64,000 nucleotides of DNA from Betaproteobacteria bacterium (lineage in GTDB: Bacteria > Pseudomonadota > Gammaproteobacteria > Burkholderiales > SG8-39), in NCBI GenBank assembly GCA_947479645.1, contig CANKAJ010000001.1, positions 75,537 to 139,536 of the forward strand, given 5' to 3'. Below the pieces are notes generated by a model, which had not been told where the DNA came from, did not search any database, and saw nothing but the letters and a program-made list of their open reading frames with translations. This document shows, piece after piece, positions 3,467-27,006 of the stretch. Numbering within the stretch: the stretch's first letter is position 1; every line of letters starts with the position of its first letter. The translations under genes and the position numbers were made by a program.

Positions 3467-3510
3467 GGGATAAGACAGCGCTGTCAGTACAAAAGCTGTC
3501 TACTGGGACA

Positions 3511-4752
3511 TCAGAGCGGCAACAACTTGCAGGTAAGGGCCGATGGGTAGTCCAGTCCCTTTGCGGCTACTGAAATAACCTTATTTTCTCTGCCTATTAC
3601 TTTGCGCAGATAGATGTCTTGTATTGGATTGTGGGCCCGGGACATTCGCCACTTTCCTCGTGGGCTATCTATTTCAGCATTTTCCAGTGCCGCGATTAAC
3701 GCTTTCCTTTGTTTCAGATCTCCCTTGACTGCTCGCAAGCCGATACCGAGGAGTAAACCAGAGTCATATCCTTGTACCGCGTATACATCAGGTTGCAGCT
3801 TGAATGCCTTTGCATACGCTAGCTGAAAGGCTCGGTTTCTCGGTGTATCAAGGCCATCGCCATAATGCAGAGCAGTTTCAATACCCTCGGCCGCATCACC
3901 TACAGCCTCAAGGACTCCGTCGGTAAGAAAGGTGCTGAACAGCGGGATTTTCCCTTTAAGACCTGCAGCTTGCCAATCTTTCAAAAACTTGGCTGCGCCC
4001 CCCCCCGCGAAGAACACGTACACTGCTTGGGGCTTGATCGAGGCAATTTCGGTAAGAAGTGACTGAAACTCCACATTGGGAAATGGAATCCACAGCTCTT
4101 TCAATATCTTTCCGCCAGCTTTTAAGAAAGAATCCTTAAAACCAGCCACCGACTCTTCACCAGCGCCATATTTCCATGCCAGTGTCACAACGTTCTTCAA
4201 TCCTCTATCTGCCACAATCTTGCCCAGTGGGAAAGCAGGCTGTCCGTTAGAAAATGATGCTCTAAAGACATTGCCGGAACATAGTACGCCGGTAGCCGCC
4301 TCCACACCCGCATTCGGTATGATATTCAGCACACCAGTGTCTCGGGCAATTTTAATAATGCCCATTTGCACGCCTGAATGGACGGTGCCTACGATTACAT
4401 CAACCTTGTCTCGACTGACTAGCTGGTTCGCACGATCCGCCGCCTTGGCCGGGTCAGACTCATCATCAATTGAGACAATTTCAATCTCACGCCCGCCGAG
4501 ATTTCCATCCTGTTCGCTTAGAGCTAGCCTGAAACCATTAGAAATGGCCACTCCCAGCGGCGCGAAGGTGCCTGTGTAAGGGAGCATGAGACCAATTTTT
4601 AACTTACTGAACTGAGCCAGAGATGCCCTCGGTAAACAGATTGACAGCAGCCCTGCTATTGACGCAGTTCGTAATAGAGTCCTCCGTGTGTAAGAAAACA
4701 TCCCGTTCATCACAGACTGATCCGGATCAATAGTTACCATTGGCATCTTCAT
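3511..4752 (-). CDS. Periplasmic substrate-binding protein of the LIV-type (HAAT family) ABC transporter; ligand not assignable
   Basis: 413-aa ORF resembling LivK/Peripla_BP_6, with a twin-arginine-like signal (RRTLLRTASIAGLL...ASLA). The start is ambiguous: 4752, 4710 or 4701. Confidence 0.8.
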   Translation of the reverse strand: MKMPMVTIDPDQSVMNGMFSYTRRTLLRTASIAGLLSICLPRASLAQFSKLKIGLMLPYTGTFAPLGVAISNGFRLALSEQDGNLGGREIEIVSIDDESDPAKAADRANQLVSRDKVDVIVGTVHSGVQMGIIKIARDTGVLNIIPNAGVEAATGVLCSGNVFRASFSNGQPAFPLGKIVADRGLKNVVTLAWKYGAGEESVAGFKDSFLKAGGKILKELWIPFPNVEFQSLLTEIASIKPQAVYVFFAGGGAAKFLKDWQAAGLKGKIPLFSTFLTDGVLEAVGDAAEGIETALHYGDGLDTPRNRAFQLAYAKAFKLQPDVYAVQGYDSGLLLGIGLRAVKGDLKQRKALIAALENAEIDSPRGKWRMSRAHNPIQDIYLRKVIGRENKVISVAAKGLDYPSALTCKLLPL

Positions 4753-8668: not shown

Positions 8669-10890
8669 CTTTTTCTATTCTTTTGGAGACTGCCACCTAC
8701 TCTGGCTGAGTATGACTGACGCTCATTGTCCTGATCAGATAAAACAAACTCAATGCGACTTGATTCAAGATCCACTCGCACAATCTTGACTTTTACTCGA
8801 TCAGCAAGGCGATAACGTTTGCCGGTTTTCTCGCCAAGCAATTGATGCTTGCCCGGATCAAACTGAAAATAGTCACTTCCGAGTTCCGACACATGCACCA
8901 TGCCTTCAACATGCACATCGTCCAAGGCTACAAATATTCCAAATCCTGCGACGCCGGAAATTGATCCTTCAAATTCATCCCCTACCCTTTTCTTCATGTA
9001 GTAGCACTTTAGCCACGAATCCACTTCACGCGTCGCCTCGTCGGCACGTCGCTCAGTCTGTGAGCAATACATACCCAGATCTTTCCAGTTACCAGGGTTA
9101 TAAATCTGACCATTCAATACCGCCTTGATTGCTCGGTGTATAACCAGATCGGGATAGCGTCGTATAGGTGAAGTAAAATGCGTATAAGCCTCATATGACA
9201 ATCCAAAGTGCCCGACATTATCTGGGGTGTACTGCGCCTGTTGCAAGGAGCGGAGCAATACCGTCTGCAATAATTGAAAATCCGGTCGCTTTTTCACTGA
9301 GTCCAAAAGTTTCGCATAGTCTTTTGCTGTAGGCCTATCCCCCCCTTGCAGGTGCAACCCGAACTCCTTTAGGAATTCACGCAATGCTGCTAATTTTTCT
9401 TCCGTTGGCCCCTCATGGACACGATAAAGTGCAGCGTGTTCAGCTTTGCTCAAAAAATTAGATGCACAGACATTTGCGGCAAGCATGCATTCCTCAATTA
9501 GACGGTGAGCGTCATTACGCGGGACTGGAACAATACGGGTAATCTTTCCCTTGTCATCGAATACTATTCGTGTTTCAACAGTCTCAAAGTCGATTGCGCC
9601 ACGACGCCCCCTAGCTTTGAGTAGGACGTGAAATAACTCTTCCAAGCATTGCAATTGTGGAATCAGCTTCTTCGCCTCATCCAACATTTCTCCTTCAATG
9701 TTAGCTAGGAGATTCCAGACTTCAGTATAAGTAAGTCGAGAATGAGAACGCATAACCGCAGGATAAAAACTAAACTGTTTGATTTCACCATTGGAAGATA
9801 TGGACATATCGCATGCCATGCATAGGCGATCGACGTTTGGCTTAAGTGAGCATAAGTCGTTGGACAGTCTTTCTGGCAGCATTGGAATGACACGACGCGG
9901 AAAATAGACTGAGGTTCCGCGTTCTCGTGCGTCAGAGTCAATTGAACTACCTGAACACACATAATGACTCACGTCAGCAATTGCCACGACAAGCCTGTAG
10001 CCACGCCCTACTTTCTCTGCATAGACTGCATCATCAAAATCACGGGCAGTTTCACCATCAATAGTAACTAGTGGAAATTTACGGAGATCTGTTCTTCCCT
10101 CTAATTCAGCCTTACGCACGGTGGCATAAAAGCTTGCTGACTCTGCTTCGGATTCTGGGGAAAAGATGTAGGGCAGCGAATGTTTACGCAATGCAATTTC
10201 AATTTCCATTCCCGGATCAGCCGCTTTCCCCAATACTTCGGATACTCCTCCGATTGGAGGTGCATCCGGGTCCTGTTGTGGAATAAGGGTCACTACCACG
10301 ACATCACCTTCTTGCGCTCCGGCCTGCTCCTTTACTGGAATGGCAATTCTTTGATTAATACGCCTGTCCGACGCAACAACAAATCTTAACCCATGTTCAA
10401 TATGCAATCGTCCGACGATGCTGATTGTTGTCCTCTCGGTGACCTCCACGATGCTAGCCTCTCGTCGAGCACGACGATCAACGCCGGTTACACGCACAAT
10501 GACTCGGTCAAGATGCAAAACCTTGCGCATCTCCTTAGGGGAAAGATAGAGGTCCGGACTTTCGTCATCTGGTATCACGAAGCCAAATCCATCAGGATGC
10601 CCCTCAATATGACCTGAGATAAGATCCAGTTTCTTGGCGACAAGAAGTGTGCCTTTACGATTTCTTAGAATTTGCCCCTCACGCTCCATTGCTGCCACTC
10701 GACGTGCAAATGGACCACGTTCACTAGGCTTGATTCCAAGCAACGTTAGGAGTCGCCCTTCAACAATAGGAACTCCTTCTTCAGCAAGGATTTCAAGAAT
10801 AAATTCGCGGCTGGGTAGCGGATCTTTGTACCGTAGCTGTTCTCGCTCAAGAAAAGGATCGCGATGTCTAACGCCACGGGGCTTTGTCAT
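8665..10890 (-). CDS. rnr: Ribonuclease R
   Basis: 741 aa. RNB catalytic core ([61 protein letters not shown]), a C-terminal S1 domain and a basic tail. Confidence 0.95.
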
Positions 10891-14728: not shown

Positions 14729-15933
14729 GGTCGCCCCTCCCTATCTCTATTTCGCAATGCATCGCGTGAGCGTGCGCCACCATCTGGAGGTGCAGGAGGT
14801 TCAGTTTGAACTTGAGCTCGGGGTTGAATCTGTGGGTCCTGCAATAGCCCCCCCCCTGACATTTGAATAATTTTGTCAAGCGGCAAATACAACATCTGAC
14901 TACCGGCCCTCGCATCCACCATGACTTTAGAAGTCGATGAAAGTATCTGCTGCATGGTGTCAAGATACAATCGATCTCGCGTCACTCCTGGGGCCTTGTT
15001 GTACTCAACCACAACGGATTTGAAACGTGCAGCCTCCCCTTCAGCATTCGCAATTACCCTCTGACGATAGCCTTCCGCCTCCTCCATCAATCGTGCTGCT
15101 GTACCGCGTGCCTTAGGTACTACATCGTTATAGTAGGCTTGTCCTTCATTCTTCTGACGCTCCAAATCCTGCTTTGCGCGCACAGCATCATCAAATGCTG
15201 CTTGTACCTGCTCTGGCGGTTGAGCGTTTTGCATTGTCACTTTACTGATTGCTATTCCAGTCTTGTAACGATCAAGAATCTCCTGCATTAATTTTTGCCC
15301 GGCGACAGCAACCTGCTCTCTGCCTTCGTATAGGACATAGTCCATTTTATTCTTCCCGACAATTTCACGAAAAGCTGTTTCGGCTGCCTGCAACACCGCT
15401 TCCTCAGGGCGTCTGTTATTAAAAAGATAATCCTCTGGATCCTTAAGGATGTATTGCACCGCAAACTGAATATCAATGATGTTTTCATCATCTGTAAGCA
15501 TTAAAGATTCACGCAGTACTTTTGTTTTTACATTGTTCCTATAACCAACTTCCACCGTTCGCACGCTAGTTAATTCAACTATTTCATGACTTTGAATTGG
15601 GTATGGCAATCTCCAGCGAAGGCCGGCGTTTGTAGTTTCTGAAAACTTTCCAAAGGTCAACACAACTCCGCGTTGCCCCTCTACCACAATATAAAAACCA
15701 CTTGTCAGCCAAACAACCAGTATCAAACCTAGAAGCAATCCGATACCACTGCCTAATTGTTTAAAACTGGGCGGTTCTCCTGACCCTGATCCGTTGCCTT
15801 CCGTGCCGTGTCGAGCAAATAATTTATTAAACTTTTTGCAGAAAGTTCGCCACAATTCATCCAGGTCAGGCGGCCCCTGATTACCACTTCCTCCGCCTGG
15901 TCGCTTTCCCCACTGGGGATCATTGAGTGACAT
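14725..15933 (-). CDS. hflK: Protease modulator HflK (SPFH/band 7)
   Basis: 402 aa: Gly-rich N-terminus, TM helix, SPFH domain. Immediately downstream of hflX. Confidence 0.93.
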   Translation of the reverse strand: MSLNDPQWGKRPGGGSGNQGPPDLDELWRTFCKKFNKLFARHGTEGNGSGSGEPPSFKQLGSGIGLLLGLILVVWLTSGFYIVVEGQRGVVLTFGKFSETTNAGLRWRLPYPIQSHEIVELTSVRTVEVGYRNNVKTKVLRESLMLTDDENIIDIQFAVQYILKDPEDYLFNNRRPEEAVLQAAETAFREIVGKNKMDYVLYEGREQVAVAGQKLMQEILDRYKTGIAISKVTMQNAQPPEQVQAAFDDAVRAKQDLERQKNEGQAYYNDVVPKARGTAARLMEEAEGYRQRVIANAEGEAARFKSVVVEYNKAPGVTRDRLYLDTMQQILSSTSKVMVDARAGSQMLYLPLDKIIQMSGGGLLQDPQIQPRAQVQTEPPAPPDGGARSRDALRNRDREGRP

Positions 15934-23389: not shown

Positions 23390-24273
23390 TCCAGCGTTAG
23401 ACGCGCCACATCAACTTTAAAGTAAGGGCGTAAATCAATAAGTTGATCATCATAAAAAACATGGACATTTGGCGCATTCCCGATCACCAAAAGAAATGGA
23501 GGTGTACCTTCAATCAGCTGTTTTGATCCACCGGCATTTAATTGAGACAGCAAGGTTTTGCCATCACCTTGCTTAATCTCAACCCAAGAGTCACGATCGA
23601 ATCGAAGCATTATGCGTTTCCCCCCCATTTTCATTGGTGTGGCAGCTTGGGAGACGCTTCGAGGCGAACCTACTTCCGCCACGCGCACTAAAGGGACTTT
23701 AGGAACACTGTTGTATCCAATATCGTCAACAGGGCTAGCAGAGCCATCACCATTTAAGTCAATCTGAGATTCCTGCTTTTGAGGCCCTGTAAGCATTTGT
23801 TGCTCAGACTTAACTGCAGAGTTTGTCAGGGTTGACATAGGCGAAAATAATTCAGCAGACCGCCATTCATACAAAAGAGCTGCAGCAATACCAACCGCAC
23901 ATACGGACATTACTCGATATAGTCTTGTAGTTTGTTTATTAACATTTGAAAATGGAATTCCAATTGCGTGTAAGTTTAAGTTTACTTTATCTGGGGGCGG
24001 TTGCCGATTTAGTACGGCCAATACAACTTCAGGATCAACATCTAATAGTTTCGCGTAACTTCGGATCATACCTCGGACATAAGTCGTACCCGGCAATTGA
24101 GAATAATCACCGTCTTCAAGCGCTTCGATTTGTCGAATTCCATATTTCAAACGCTGAGAAACTTCTGCCAAAGTTAAATTTCGCTCGCTTCGAAATCGAG
24201 CCAAAATCACACCCACCGAAGATGTACCACCTTCGGTCGATCCAGTATCCAACTCTTTGACGGCATCATCCAT
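23386..24273 (-). CDS. rodZ: Cytoskeleton protein RodZ (HTH + TM + C-terminal domain)
   Basis: N-terminal Xre-type HTH ([21 protein letters not shown]), a central TM helix, and a conserved C-terminus. Overlaps the ispG start by 4 nt. Confidence 0.82.
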
Positions 24274-24287
24274 GCAATGGCTACAAT

Positions 24288-25103
24288 TTAATTGAACTGA
24301 CCCTTAATCAACCCTTGATACTCTGGTGATCCTGGAAATTGGCGCCTCAACTGTAGCGCTAGATTATTCTCAGCTGCTTTATCTCCCAACCGTCGTTCTA
24401 TGCGCAGAGCGAGCCAAAGCGACTCCGCCGTTGCATCAACAAGCTTGGTGTAACGACCTATAAGCAATTGTGATTCGGCGAGTTCGCCTCTTTTGTACCG
24501 AAGCTGTGCCATTCCCATAATTGCGCCAAGGTAATTCGGATCCAGCCGAAGCGCCTTTTCATAGTACTCAAGCGCTTCTGTATCCTTATTTTTTCGAACG
24601 GCGCAATTTGCTGCCAACAAATAGGATTTTTGAGGGGTCGAATATAATGGGTTACGAATAGCTGCAAGGAAATAGCGTAAAGACAACTCTTCTCGGTCAG
24701 TCCGGCAAAGAAACCAGCCATAATTATGATTGGCATCCGGATCGGTTGGACTAATACGCAATGACCTCTCGAAATTGGCCTGAGCCTGATCATATTCACG
24801 CAAATCCGAATGAACTAACCCAAGCACATTGTAGGCAGGTGCATAGCTAGGATCTGCAGCGATCGCAACCCTCAATTCTTCCAAGGCCACTGCCATATTT
24901 CCACGTTCGTAATAAGCACCCGCGAGCTCTGTATGAATACGTGCCCTATCCCGAGGCGGGCTCTGTTCAGCAATCACAGCTCCTGATTCTGTCGGAAGCT
25001 CCGCTGATCGATCAGGACTTCCTGTAGATGGTACCGTTCCCACACAGCCAGCCAATATCCACAAAAACGACAAACTATAGCAAAGCCCGACTCTGCCAAT
25101 CAT
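24288..25103 (-). CDS. pilW: Type IV pilus biogenesis/stability TPR lipoprotein PilW
   Basis: Lipobox ILAGC and TPR repeats. Conserved slot between rlmN and rodZ/ispG in betaproteobacteria. Confidence 0.75.
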
Positions 25104-26044
25104 GCTGGCACCCTCCTCAAGCTAATCGTTCGACGAGTGCGATCTTTAACCATTCCAGCAAGTTGCCCACATGCAGCATCAATGTCGCCCCCTCGCGTTT
25201 TACGCGTTGTGACAACAATGCCCGCAGAATGCAAGATTTCACTGAATCCCCGGATAGTTTCAGGTGATGAACGCTTGAAGCCAGCGCTTGGAAATGGGTT
25301 AAACGGGATCAAATTAATTTTGCAAGAAACCTTAGACGCCAAACAAACCAATTCATTGGCGTGAGTTTCGCTGTCATTGACACCAGCGAGCATTACGTAT
25401 TCAAAAGTAATAAAGTCACGCGGTGCCCGATCCAAATAACGATTACATGCATCGAGCAATTTGGAAATTGGATACTTGCGATTAATCGGCATCAATTGAT
25501 CCCTTAAAGTATCATTGGGCGCATGAAGAGATACTGCGAGGGCAACCGGACAATCTTCGCGAAGCCGATCTATCATGGGCACTATGCCTGAAGTCGAGAG
25601 TGTCACCCGACGCCGAGAAAGTCCGTAAGCGTCATCGCTAAGCATCAAGCGTAACGCTGGAACAACATTATCGTAATTCAGCAGAGGCTCGCCCATTCCC
25701 ATCAAAACCACGTTGCTGATGACACGATTCTTTCTAGTTGGATCCAATGCATTATTGGCCAGCCAAAGCTGACCAATAATTTCTGCAGTTGTAAGATTTC
25801 GGTTAAACCCTTGCTTTCCTGTCGAGCAGAATCCGCAATCCAACGTGCAACCAGCTTGACTCGATATGCAAAGCGTACCGCGGCTTACCTCAGGGATATA
25901 CACCGTCTCGACTGCACTAGAACCAACACCAAAAAGCCATTTTCGCGTTCCATCCGCAGCAATCAAATCACTCACTTGAGTCGGTGCATCTATTGCCGCA
26001 GCATGTAACAACTTTTCCCTGAGAGACCGAGCAATGTCCGTCAT
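25100..26044 (-). CDS. rlmN: 23S rRNA/tRNA A-C2 methyltransferase RlmN, main ORF lacking its N-terminus (see frameshift)
   Basis: Radical-SAM motif [11 protein letters not shown], plus [10 protein letters not shown] and ACGQL. The 314-aa ORF starts inside the conserved ...DFxxMTDI... region. The first ~45 residues are encoded upstream in another frame. Confidence 0.93.
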
Positions 26045-26175
26045 TGCCGAAAAATCCCCCCCCCCCTTTGATGAATCCAGCGAAGGACCTGCCGTCCCCG
26101 AAATGGCTTTTCACCAATCCTGGCAAAAAATGCATTAATGCCTTCGAGGTCCAAATTCAGCAGATTTTCAGTCAT
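26041..26175 (-). pseudogene. rlmN: Detached N-terminal fragment of rlmN (44 codons), out of frame with the main ORF
   Basis: Hand translation from ATG 26175 gives [44 protein letters not shown]. This is the typical RlmN N-terminus up to the homopolymer, followed by 4 off-frame codons and a stop. Confidence 0.88.
26056..26066. repeat. Homopolymer C11 (G11 on the coding strand) at the rlmN frameshift point
   Basis: Counted directly: 5 C at 26056-26060 plus 6 C at 26061-26066. Confidence 0.95.
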
Positions 26176-26199: not shown

Positions 26200-26625
26200 T
26201 TAGCGTGCAAATATCCCCAATGCCGGGAAAAAATATGCGATCTCATCACGTGCCGTATCCTCACTGTCAGACCCATGTACTGCGTTTGCATCAATACTGT
26301 CAGCAAGATCCGCACGGATCGTCCCCTTCTCAGCCTTCTTCGGGTCCGTCGCGCCCATCAACTCACGGTTTCTGGAGATTGCATTCTCTCCTTCCAGCAC
26401 TTGCACCATGACTGGGCCGGAAATCATAAATTTCACTAGATCACGAAAGAAAGGACGATCTTTGTGCACCGCATAAAAACCTTCGGCTTCCTTCTGAGAT
26501 AGTTGCATCATGTGTGCAGCTATTACTTTTAGCCCAGCAACCTCAAAGCGTGAATAAATATTCCCTATAACATTTTTTGCAACTGCATCTGGTTTAATAA
26601 TTGATAATGTTCTTTCTACGGCCAT
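26200..26625 (-). CDS. ndk: Nucleoside diphosphate kinase
   Basis: Trimmed to ATG 26625, with a GGAGA Shine-Dalgarno 7-11 nt upstream. [15 protein letters not shown]...NAVHGSDS is the canonical Ndk sequence. Confidence 0.97.
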
Positions 26626-27006
26626 ACCATTCTCCATCGATTTTCAGAAAGTGAGTTCTTTAGAAGGAAACCTTCAAGTTACTCAATCCAAGTTAATAAG
26701 TATATTAAATATTTACGGTAAGTTTATATTTTAACAGTCTTTTATGGCAATGTTGCAATCTGCCAGAAGAGCCCCGTCATTAAGCATAACACTGTGAAAT
26801 TTGGTTTCTGCCATATAGGCAGCAGGTAATATCTCTAATGCTAGACATCGTTTACTTAGCGTGGTTCTCGCTGTCTACTTTCTTCTACGCCATCAAATTA
26901 CATTTGATTTTGATTAGTTTCGTAAGTCCTTCGAAACCCTTGAGAAATTACGGTACCAACAACTTGCCGCTTGATCTTAACTGTACGATCAACTCGAATT
27001 TGAATG

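Follow-up and report, generated by a model that had tools for sequence, protein, structure and literature searches.

The gene rlmN is split into two open reading frames (ORFs) at a run of 11 guanines in a 64,000-nucleotide stretch of an uncultured, freshwater-type Betaproteobacteria bacterium of lineage SG8-39 (GenBank assembly GCA_947479645.1, contig CANKAJ010000001.1, positions 75,537 to 139,536; hereafter the window). Comparison with other assemblies revealed that the split reflects slippage by one base in a gene that otherwise works, and neither a dead gene nor a conserved switch. We see about an even chance that the run is a hypermutable homopolymer whose G11 and G12 lengths represent a real, non-adaptive heterogeneity among cells, with G12 as the functional state. 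A previous annotation made from the letters alone (the sequence-only reading) had described the split and offered three explanations for it: a homopolymer sequencing error, a genuine inactivating mutation and a slipped-strand ON/OFF switch.

The whole rlmN locus occupies 25100..26175 on the minus strand. The run comprises exactly 11 G at 26056..26066 of the minus strand (C11 on the plus strand), in the context ...TGG ATT CAT CAA AGG GGG GGG GGG ATT TTT CGG CAA TGA CGG..., and is the longest homopolymer of the window. A G11 run appeared in none of 100 dinucleotide-preserving shuffles of the window, indicating that an 11-base G run is not a chance feature. The upstream ORF (26041..26175, minus strand), which reads from the ATG at 26175 to a TGA at 26043-26041, encodes a 44-residue protein beginning with MTENLL that corresponds to RlmN residues 1-40 followed by IFRQ and the stop. 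Its Pfam match to RlmN_N at residues 4-39 covers the first two-thirds of this HhH2-type, RNA-binding domain, including F25, R26 and Q29. The downstream ORF (25100..26044, minus strand) begins with MTDIARSL in a different frame and encodes 314 residues corresponding to RlmN residues 45-358, and retains the entire radical-SAM core (cluster motif CTLDCGFC) together with the catalytic Cys positions that are conserved. Between the G run and the ATG of this 314-residue ORF, which lies downstream of the run, the distance is 11 nucleotides. In the G11 state the two ORFs overlap in an ATGA at 26041..26044, where the TGA of the former (26043-26041) meets the ATG of the latter (26044-26042). The split had been described accurately in every detail by the sequence-only reading.

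With one G added, the locus becomes a single gene of 1077 nucleotides encoding 358 residues, in which the G12 run begins at the second base of Arg37 (AGG), takes in the whole GGG codons of Gly38, Gly39 and Gly40 and ends with the first base of Asp41 (GAT). This restored protein scores 427.5 bits against TIGR00048, the RlmN equivalog profile with a curated cut-off of 290 bits, over profile positions 7-354 of 355. Domain analysis revealed RlmN_N (PF21016) at residues 4-62 and Radical_SAM (PF04055) at residues 105-270. Residues 4-354 align with the Escherichia coli RlmN structures; in the alignment to 3RF9, the CTLDCGFC motif as well as the cysteines of TLCISSQ and DAACGQ have their counterparts. 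The G12 allele possesses the RlmN architecture in full, namely the RlmN_N HhH2 domain, the radical-SAM CX3CX2C motif and the two catalytic cysteines, whereas G11 splits the N-terminal domain across two ORFs. Judged by its sequence, the G12 gene is predicted to encode RlmN, the dual-specificity radical-SAM methyltransferase responsible for m2A2503 of 23S rRNA and m2A37 of tRNA.

That one added G yields a family-length protein, as the sequence-only reading had anticipated, is borne out by independent G12 assemblies. A search of the protein collection returned a 358-residue protein (P0001) that differs from the reconstruction at one residue (N-to-K). The cluster at 90% identity contains four members: P0001; P0121, which matches the reconstruction exactly and is encoded on four other contigs; P0122, the 314-residue product of the window; and P0123, a K40 variant. 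The 314-residue ORF is identical to the matching part of the intact allele P0121. The N-terminal pattern quoted for the family, W-x-H-x-x-G-x-x-D-F-x-x-M-T/S-D, is present at constant length in all 80 orthologous loci, and this constant segment length shows that G12, not G9, fits the family. Removal of two Gs, the other remedy put forward earlier, restores the frame arithmetically; however, G9 was rejected as the true in-frame state, as the 90% cluster contains no such allele and all orthologues have the G12 length.

Tract alleles were fetched as the DNA behind the RlmN proteins and behind the flanking ndk and pilW-like genes, and three of them were found. G11 is present in the window (NCBI contig of ~245.8 kb), ENA ERZ27277814 k141_5794958, Logan ERR3761218 and KAVA23-1_SAMEA14109822 (contigs other than the window labelled L083, L084 and L104). 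G12 is present in MEHR18-2_SAMN08331103 (a 136-kb contig), MEHR18-2_SAMN08331095, Logan SRR6787038 and SRR6787039, and ENA ERZ27263727 (L081 and L085-L088). We take MEHR18-2 and KAVA23-1 to be freshwater study codes. A third allele, G8-AAA-G, is in frame, encodes RGGKDF and occurs in JGI 3300010885 and ENA ERZ27300165 (L089 and L103). Among the assemblies fetched, there was no G9, G10, G13 or G15 allele, and a scan of JGI metagenomes for the left flank followed by GGGGG gave only one unrelated chance match (L090). The five G12 contigs are otherwise base-identical to the window or differ from it by at most 4 single-nucleotide polymorphisms (SNPs); L085-L088 match it over 2.1-7.1 kb save for one G. 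The G11 contig of ERZ27277814 shows 3 differences from the window in 21 kb and is thus a separate assembly.

Both lengths occur on both SNP backgrounds at site 25712. The C background carries G11 in the window, L083 and L104, and G12 in L085-L088, whereas the T background carries G11 in L084 and G12 in L081. The length change therefore arose more than once, either in cells or in libraries.

Two further observations concern the contigs fetched. Short contigs from other samples break near the rlmN tract: L103 ends 21 nucleotides after it, L084 starts 86 nucleotides before it and L105 ends ~90 nucleotides before it, a pattern that a mixture of tract alleles or strains at this point would be expected to produce during assembly. 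In addition, L082 (JGI 3300047517, gene 147-1676) encodes P0002, a 509-residue RlmN homologue with an internal duplication of ~150 residues, in which the block VMMGMGEPL...RAPRDF..TFEYVML occurs twice in divergent copies; two strains have probably been merged there into one chimeric assembly.

If the length change arose in libraries, all cells would carry G12, and in-vitro slippage during library PCR (polymerase chain reaction), cluster amplification or poly-G phasing would have made G11 the modal read, which the assemblers then reproduced faithfully. This technical explanation is the main rival, though we consider it less likely than not. Three assembly pipelines arrive at G11 (Logan, MEGAHIT-style k141, SPIRE-style scaffolds), and the length is found in at least two samples and on both SNP backgrounds, which excludes an assembler accident and points to a modal read length, while leaving stutter in the library or the sequencer. 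The sequencing error proposed earlier is narrowed to such stutter, as the recurrence of G11 speaks against an assembler glitch and the lack of another visibly split gene against an assembly riddled with indels. Indeed, inspection of ORF lengths and gaps found no other split gene in the 64-kb window, which contains ~55 ORFs of normal length at 91% coding density. No other indel-type lesion is visible in these 64 kb, where three G9 tracts remain in frame. One of them, in hflK, is invariant in every assembly read, including SRR6787039 (rlmN G12) and ERZ27277814 (rlmN G11). Moreover, the ~245-kb contig suggests good coverage, in which case stutter would have to affect more than 50% of the reads. 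In synthetic G11/C11 controls, only ~3-6% of the molecules were off-length (PMC9187656). By comparison, error-corrected sequencing of a single-colony culture of Bifidobacterium breve found one tract to be 37% G11, 59% G12 and 3% G10, and a G10 tract in the same study stayed at ~93% G10 (PMC9187656). Taken together, the recurrence across pipelines and backgrounds, the clean assembly, the length of the contig and the B. breve data favor real heterogeneity, and we infer that the length difference arises in cells.

Several points weigh against this preference and for stutter. The frameshift falls within the window's longest homopolymer. Runs of 11-12 G also make PCR and sequencing polymerases slip, with a bias toward the loss of one base, and minus-one is the only variant seen here. 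The state of the tract tends to be uniform within a study, as both MEHR18-2 samples and both SRR67870xx runs are G12. Every tract length is an assembly consensus and not a read measurement. Some samples are possibly one dataset passed through different pipelines, so that the independent observations amount to at least two for G11 and at least three for G12; a search of papers by sample and run accession turned up nothing on provenance. The gene is otherwise under purifying selection, and for G11 to be modal in nature, the loss of RlmN would need to be near-neutral or sometimes favored. One study also cautions that the G-tract lengths recorded in databases can depart from those actually present, and notes specific failures of Illumina sequencing on G-tract templates (PMC9187656).

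The purifying selection is apparent from the comparison with the G8-AAA-G relative, which differs in rlmN by five synonymous changes and by K40G, the tract codon, as the only amino-acid change. These data also bear on the proposal that the lineage has lost RlmN for good and that the gene is a decaying pseudogene. The window as given encodes no full-length RlmN, and rlmN frameshift pseudogenes are known to occur naturally in Mycobacterium tuberculosis (PMC9676053). However, the frameshift is the sole lesion in rlmN, the other 314 codons equal those of the intact allele, and divergence from the relative is synonymous save for the tract codon. Intact alleles are found in at least five contigs of the same species, and G12 on identical flanks effectively refutes a fixed loss. 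A fixed pseudogene is accordingly highly improbable, and the genuine inactivating mutation of the sequence-only reading finds no support as a fixed state.

Further comparison revealed that the tract is young. A scan of genome contigs with the restored protein returned only orthologues of at most 70% identity and no close relative, and these were used for the orthologue survey. The longest G run at the site is at most 5 in all 80 orthologous loci. A relative of 83% identity reads CGC GGG GAA AAA GAA (G4) at the site, the clade at ~0.8% divergence reads AGG GGG GGG AAA GAT, and the G12 allele reads AGG GGG GGG GGG GAT. The short runs of the orthologues and the G8-AAA-G clade together indicate a lineage-specific tract of recent origin. 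Read in this order, the alleles imply a run that lengthened from 4 to 8 and then to 12 Gs, with an ancestral Lys codon AAA giving way to GGG at the final stage. Within less than 1% divergence, such an AAA-to-GGG change looks like a run-extending mutation and not an ordinary substitution.

The window also contains an excess of long G runs, which points to a mutational origin of the tract. Coding-strand G runs of at least 9 number 4, against 0.14 expected from synonymous shuffling, and none of 2000 shuffles reached 4; by the same measure, A, T and C runs in the window are at or under expectation. The three other runs are G9 tracts at 418-426, 3998-4006 and 14848-14856, all with the minus strand as coding strand, which encode in-frame Gly-Gly-Gly in intact livF-like, livK-like and hflK genes. 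Of the Gly codons, GGG is used least (16.7%); nevertheless, 4 of the 11 Gly-Gly-Gly sites are G runs of at least 9. In 520 kb from 80 other genomes, by contrast, there is one G/C run of at least 9. The hflK G9 tract is also kept in a relative at ~99.7% identity. With an excess of ~30-fold, the long coding G runs of this lineage merit attention across the whole genome. As side observations, the lone long G run among the 80 orthologous loci is a G10 in a Sideroxydans metagenome-assembled genome (L049, position 2998). The plus strand of the window holds 18083 C versus 14642 G, 47 of the 55 long ORFs lie on the minus strand, and so do all the long G runs; the G-rich minus strand is probably the leading strand.

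The age and the origin of the tract bear on whether it is an evolved contingency locus, in which selection keeps the run as a stochastic ON/OFF switch of RlmN. Such a switch would yield subpopulations lacking m2A2503 and m2A37, and thereby differences in the accuracy of translation, in the response to stress and in how susceptible cells are to antibiotics of the peptidyl-transferase center. As phasome surveys look for, the locus has an intragenic poly-G tract of at least 9 near the 5′ end (codons 37-41 of 358), placed so that its length switches the frame, and ON and OFF consensus lengths in near-identical genomes on two backgrounds. RlmN loss lowers antibiotic susceptibility (PMC5062987), Enterococcus faecalis uses RlmN inactivation as a stress signal (PMC10336011), and reversible homopolymer frameshifts are adaptive in the M. 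tuberculosis housekeeping gene glpK (10.1101/717272; PMC10334774). However, the tract is unconserved, being G8-AAA-G at 0.8% divergence, G4 in the 83%-identical relative and at most 5 in the 80 orthologues. Moreover, G runs of at least 9 are over-represented in unrelated housekeeping genes without length variation, which argues for mutation bias and not for selection at this locus. The literature searched contained no rlmN phase variation. We therefore consider an evolved switch unlikely. Of the slipped-strand switch proposed earlier, the length difference between near-identical genomes on two SNP backgrounds gives weak encouragement, while a conserved switch is contradicted by the very comparison of G runs among orthologues that the sequence-only reading had suggested.

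A further alternative is programmed recoding, in which G11 itself is functional and full-length RlmN is made either by RNA polymerase slippage that adds one G or by -1 ribosomal frameshifting on G GGG GGG. The exact native sequence ...RGGGDFSAM... would result if tRNA-Gly slipped by -1 on GGG GGG or if the transcript carried an additional G. The run exceeds the length of an RNA-DNA hybrid, the physical condition for transcriptional slippage. Against recoding, an in-frame G12 allele exists in the same strain, the slippery site is unconserved, and the downstream RNA is no more structured than shuffled sequences (z = +0.70 and +0.66). Around so young a tract, stimulatory elements have not had time to evolve, and slippage would at most produce a leaky OFF state. 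We thus regard programmed recoding as very improbable.

Returning to slippage heterogeneity in cells, we propose that a functional housekeeping rlmN very recently gained a 12-G run in codons 37-41, inside the N-terminal RNA-binding domain. Such a run would be intrinsically prone to slippage, and the window would record its minus-one state. Most likely, replication slippage then keeps G11 and G12 together in the natural population, with each assembly reporting the modal length of its sample. The tract would be a by-product of a lineage-wide tendency for G runs in Gly codons, and not a switch evolved at this locus. In G11 cells, translation would halt after 44 codons. Reinitiation at the ATGA might produce at best an N-terminally truncated RlmN, and might limit polarity on the overlapping pilW-like gene. 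By alignment register, F25, R26 and Q29 of the 44-residue fragment correspond to Y24, R25 and Q28 of Cfr, which contact rRNA; RlmN, too, is described as relying crucially on its N-terminal HhH2 domain to bind RNA (PMC13001441). A truncated RlmN without these residues would probably bind its substrates poorly; we infer that G11 amounts to a loss of function, with methylation at m2A2503 and m2A37 lost or strongly reduced. A literature search for N-terminal truncation experiments on RlmN or Cfr returned none; the evidence that it did yield for RNA binding by this domain is structural.

The tract resembles the poly-G/C loci of Campylobacter, Neisseria, Haemophilus and Helicobacter in being an intragenic G run of at least 9 near the 5′ end, where one base toggles the frame and lengths differ in near-identical genomes. 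Those loci, however, are conserved across strains, lie mostly in genes for surface structures or restriction-modification in host-adapted bacteria and have measured switching rates. In contrast, the rlmN tract is limited to a lineage with less than 1% divergence in an environmental betaproteobacterium, its gene serves housekeeping RNA modification, and its lengths are those of assembly consensus sequences. Similar to rlmN in the window, the B. breve pilus gene bbr_0113a/b is annotated as two ORFs split at G11, and its authors ask whether the database tract length reflects biology or sequencing (PMC9187656). The B. breve G11/G12 mixture was measured with molecular tags in one culture and shifted in vivo (PMC9187656), whereas the rlmN lengths are consensus lengths only.

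Among known systems, the 7C tract of M. tuberculosis glpK is, by analogy, the nearest functional counterpart, being a homopolymer frameshift in a housekeeping gene that is reversible, so that the loss is heritable but transient (10.1101/717272; PMC10334774). Compared to the rlmN tract, it is shorter, conserved species-wide and experimentally tied to drug tolerance. Natural loss of rlmN itself is documented by the passages that describe the M. tuberculosis Rv2879c frameshift (PMC9676053) and mutations that inactivate the gene in resistant isolates from the clinic (PMC5062987). As in the window, the same gene is hit by small mutations there, and RlmN is thereby shown to be dispensable, its loss being tolerable or selectable; these passages differ in that they tie no long homopolymer or reversibility to the lesions. 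Together with the E. faecalis stress signal, such natural and selected losses make an OFF state biologically plausible. Literature searches for phase variation or a homopolymeric frameshift of rlmN brought up nothing comparable apart from the M. tuberculosis pseudogene. The locus also shares with homopolymer assembly errors a one-base discrepancy at the longest homopolymer and a split gene. Unlike the usual errors of this kind, which come with other indels and are not reproduced, it lies in an otherwise clean window, and G11 recurs.

For annotation, rlmN should be treated as an intact 358-residue gene with a length-variable G12 tract, and not as a pseudogene. The locus is a clean case of a G11/G12 tract at which public assemblies of one strain disagree, and shows that comparing independent assemblies can resolve such split genes at least to a functional gene with an unstable tract. 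If the heterogeneity is present in cells, at any moment a sizeable share of a natural population would be missing a conserved modification of ribosomes and tRNAs, and this would add, outside pathogens, a source of translational heterogeneity not reported so far. The bolder proposal, that stochastic ON/OFF switching of an RNA-modifying enzyme by a poly-G tract is in use, or is coming into use, in a free-living betaproteobacterium, strikes us as rather improbable. If it were true, the system would parallel, at the level of RNA, the DNA methyltransferases that are phase-variable. Cells without m2A would then always be part of the population and would differ in how accurately they decode, in their stress response and in how well they tolerate natural antibiotics of the peptidyl-transferase center, and the excess of coding G runs would supply raw material for wider switching of housekeeping genes.

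The rlmN gene lies within a conserved array, ndk-rlmN-pilW-like-rodZ-ispG-hisS. The upstream gene ndk (PF00334) occupies 26200..26637 on the minus strand. Downstream lies a TPR lipoprotein gene resembling pilW/pilF (24288..25103, minus strand), whose start overlaps the rlmN stop in an ATGA at 25100-25103, and on this arrangement it may be translationally coupled to rlmN. A promoter and terminator scan around the rlmN locus gave nothing above chance. An Rfam search of the window revealed four tRNAs and no rRNA.

Several of the contigs fetched differ from the window mainly by changes to A, which include those in L106 at window positions 10240, 7848 and 5445. Two such changes create stop codons, a TCA-to-TAA change in ndk of L081 (window 26552) and a TAT-to-TAA change in hflX of L092 (window 16486), where hflX is called as pieces of 193 and 154 residues. 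Such a bias would fit ambiguity codes that were stored as A, or errors at low coverage, better than real nonsense mutations. Given this skew, the two stop codons were not relied on as signs of gene decay in the relatives.

Near the rlmN locus, rodZ contains a hexanucleotide repeat (TAAACT)x2 at 23973-23984 on the minus strand of the window, encoding ...VNLNLH..., a two-copy repeat that was not flagged by TRF. In the JGI relative L089 (~position 3470), rodZ has an 18-nucleotide in-frame insertion consisting of three extra copies of the hexanucleotide, which lengthens the protein to 301 residues compared to 295. This hexanucleotide is a second slippage-type length polymorphism near the rlmN locus.

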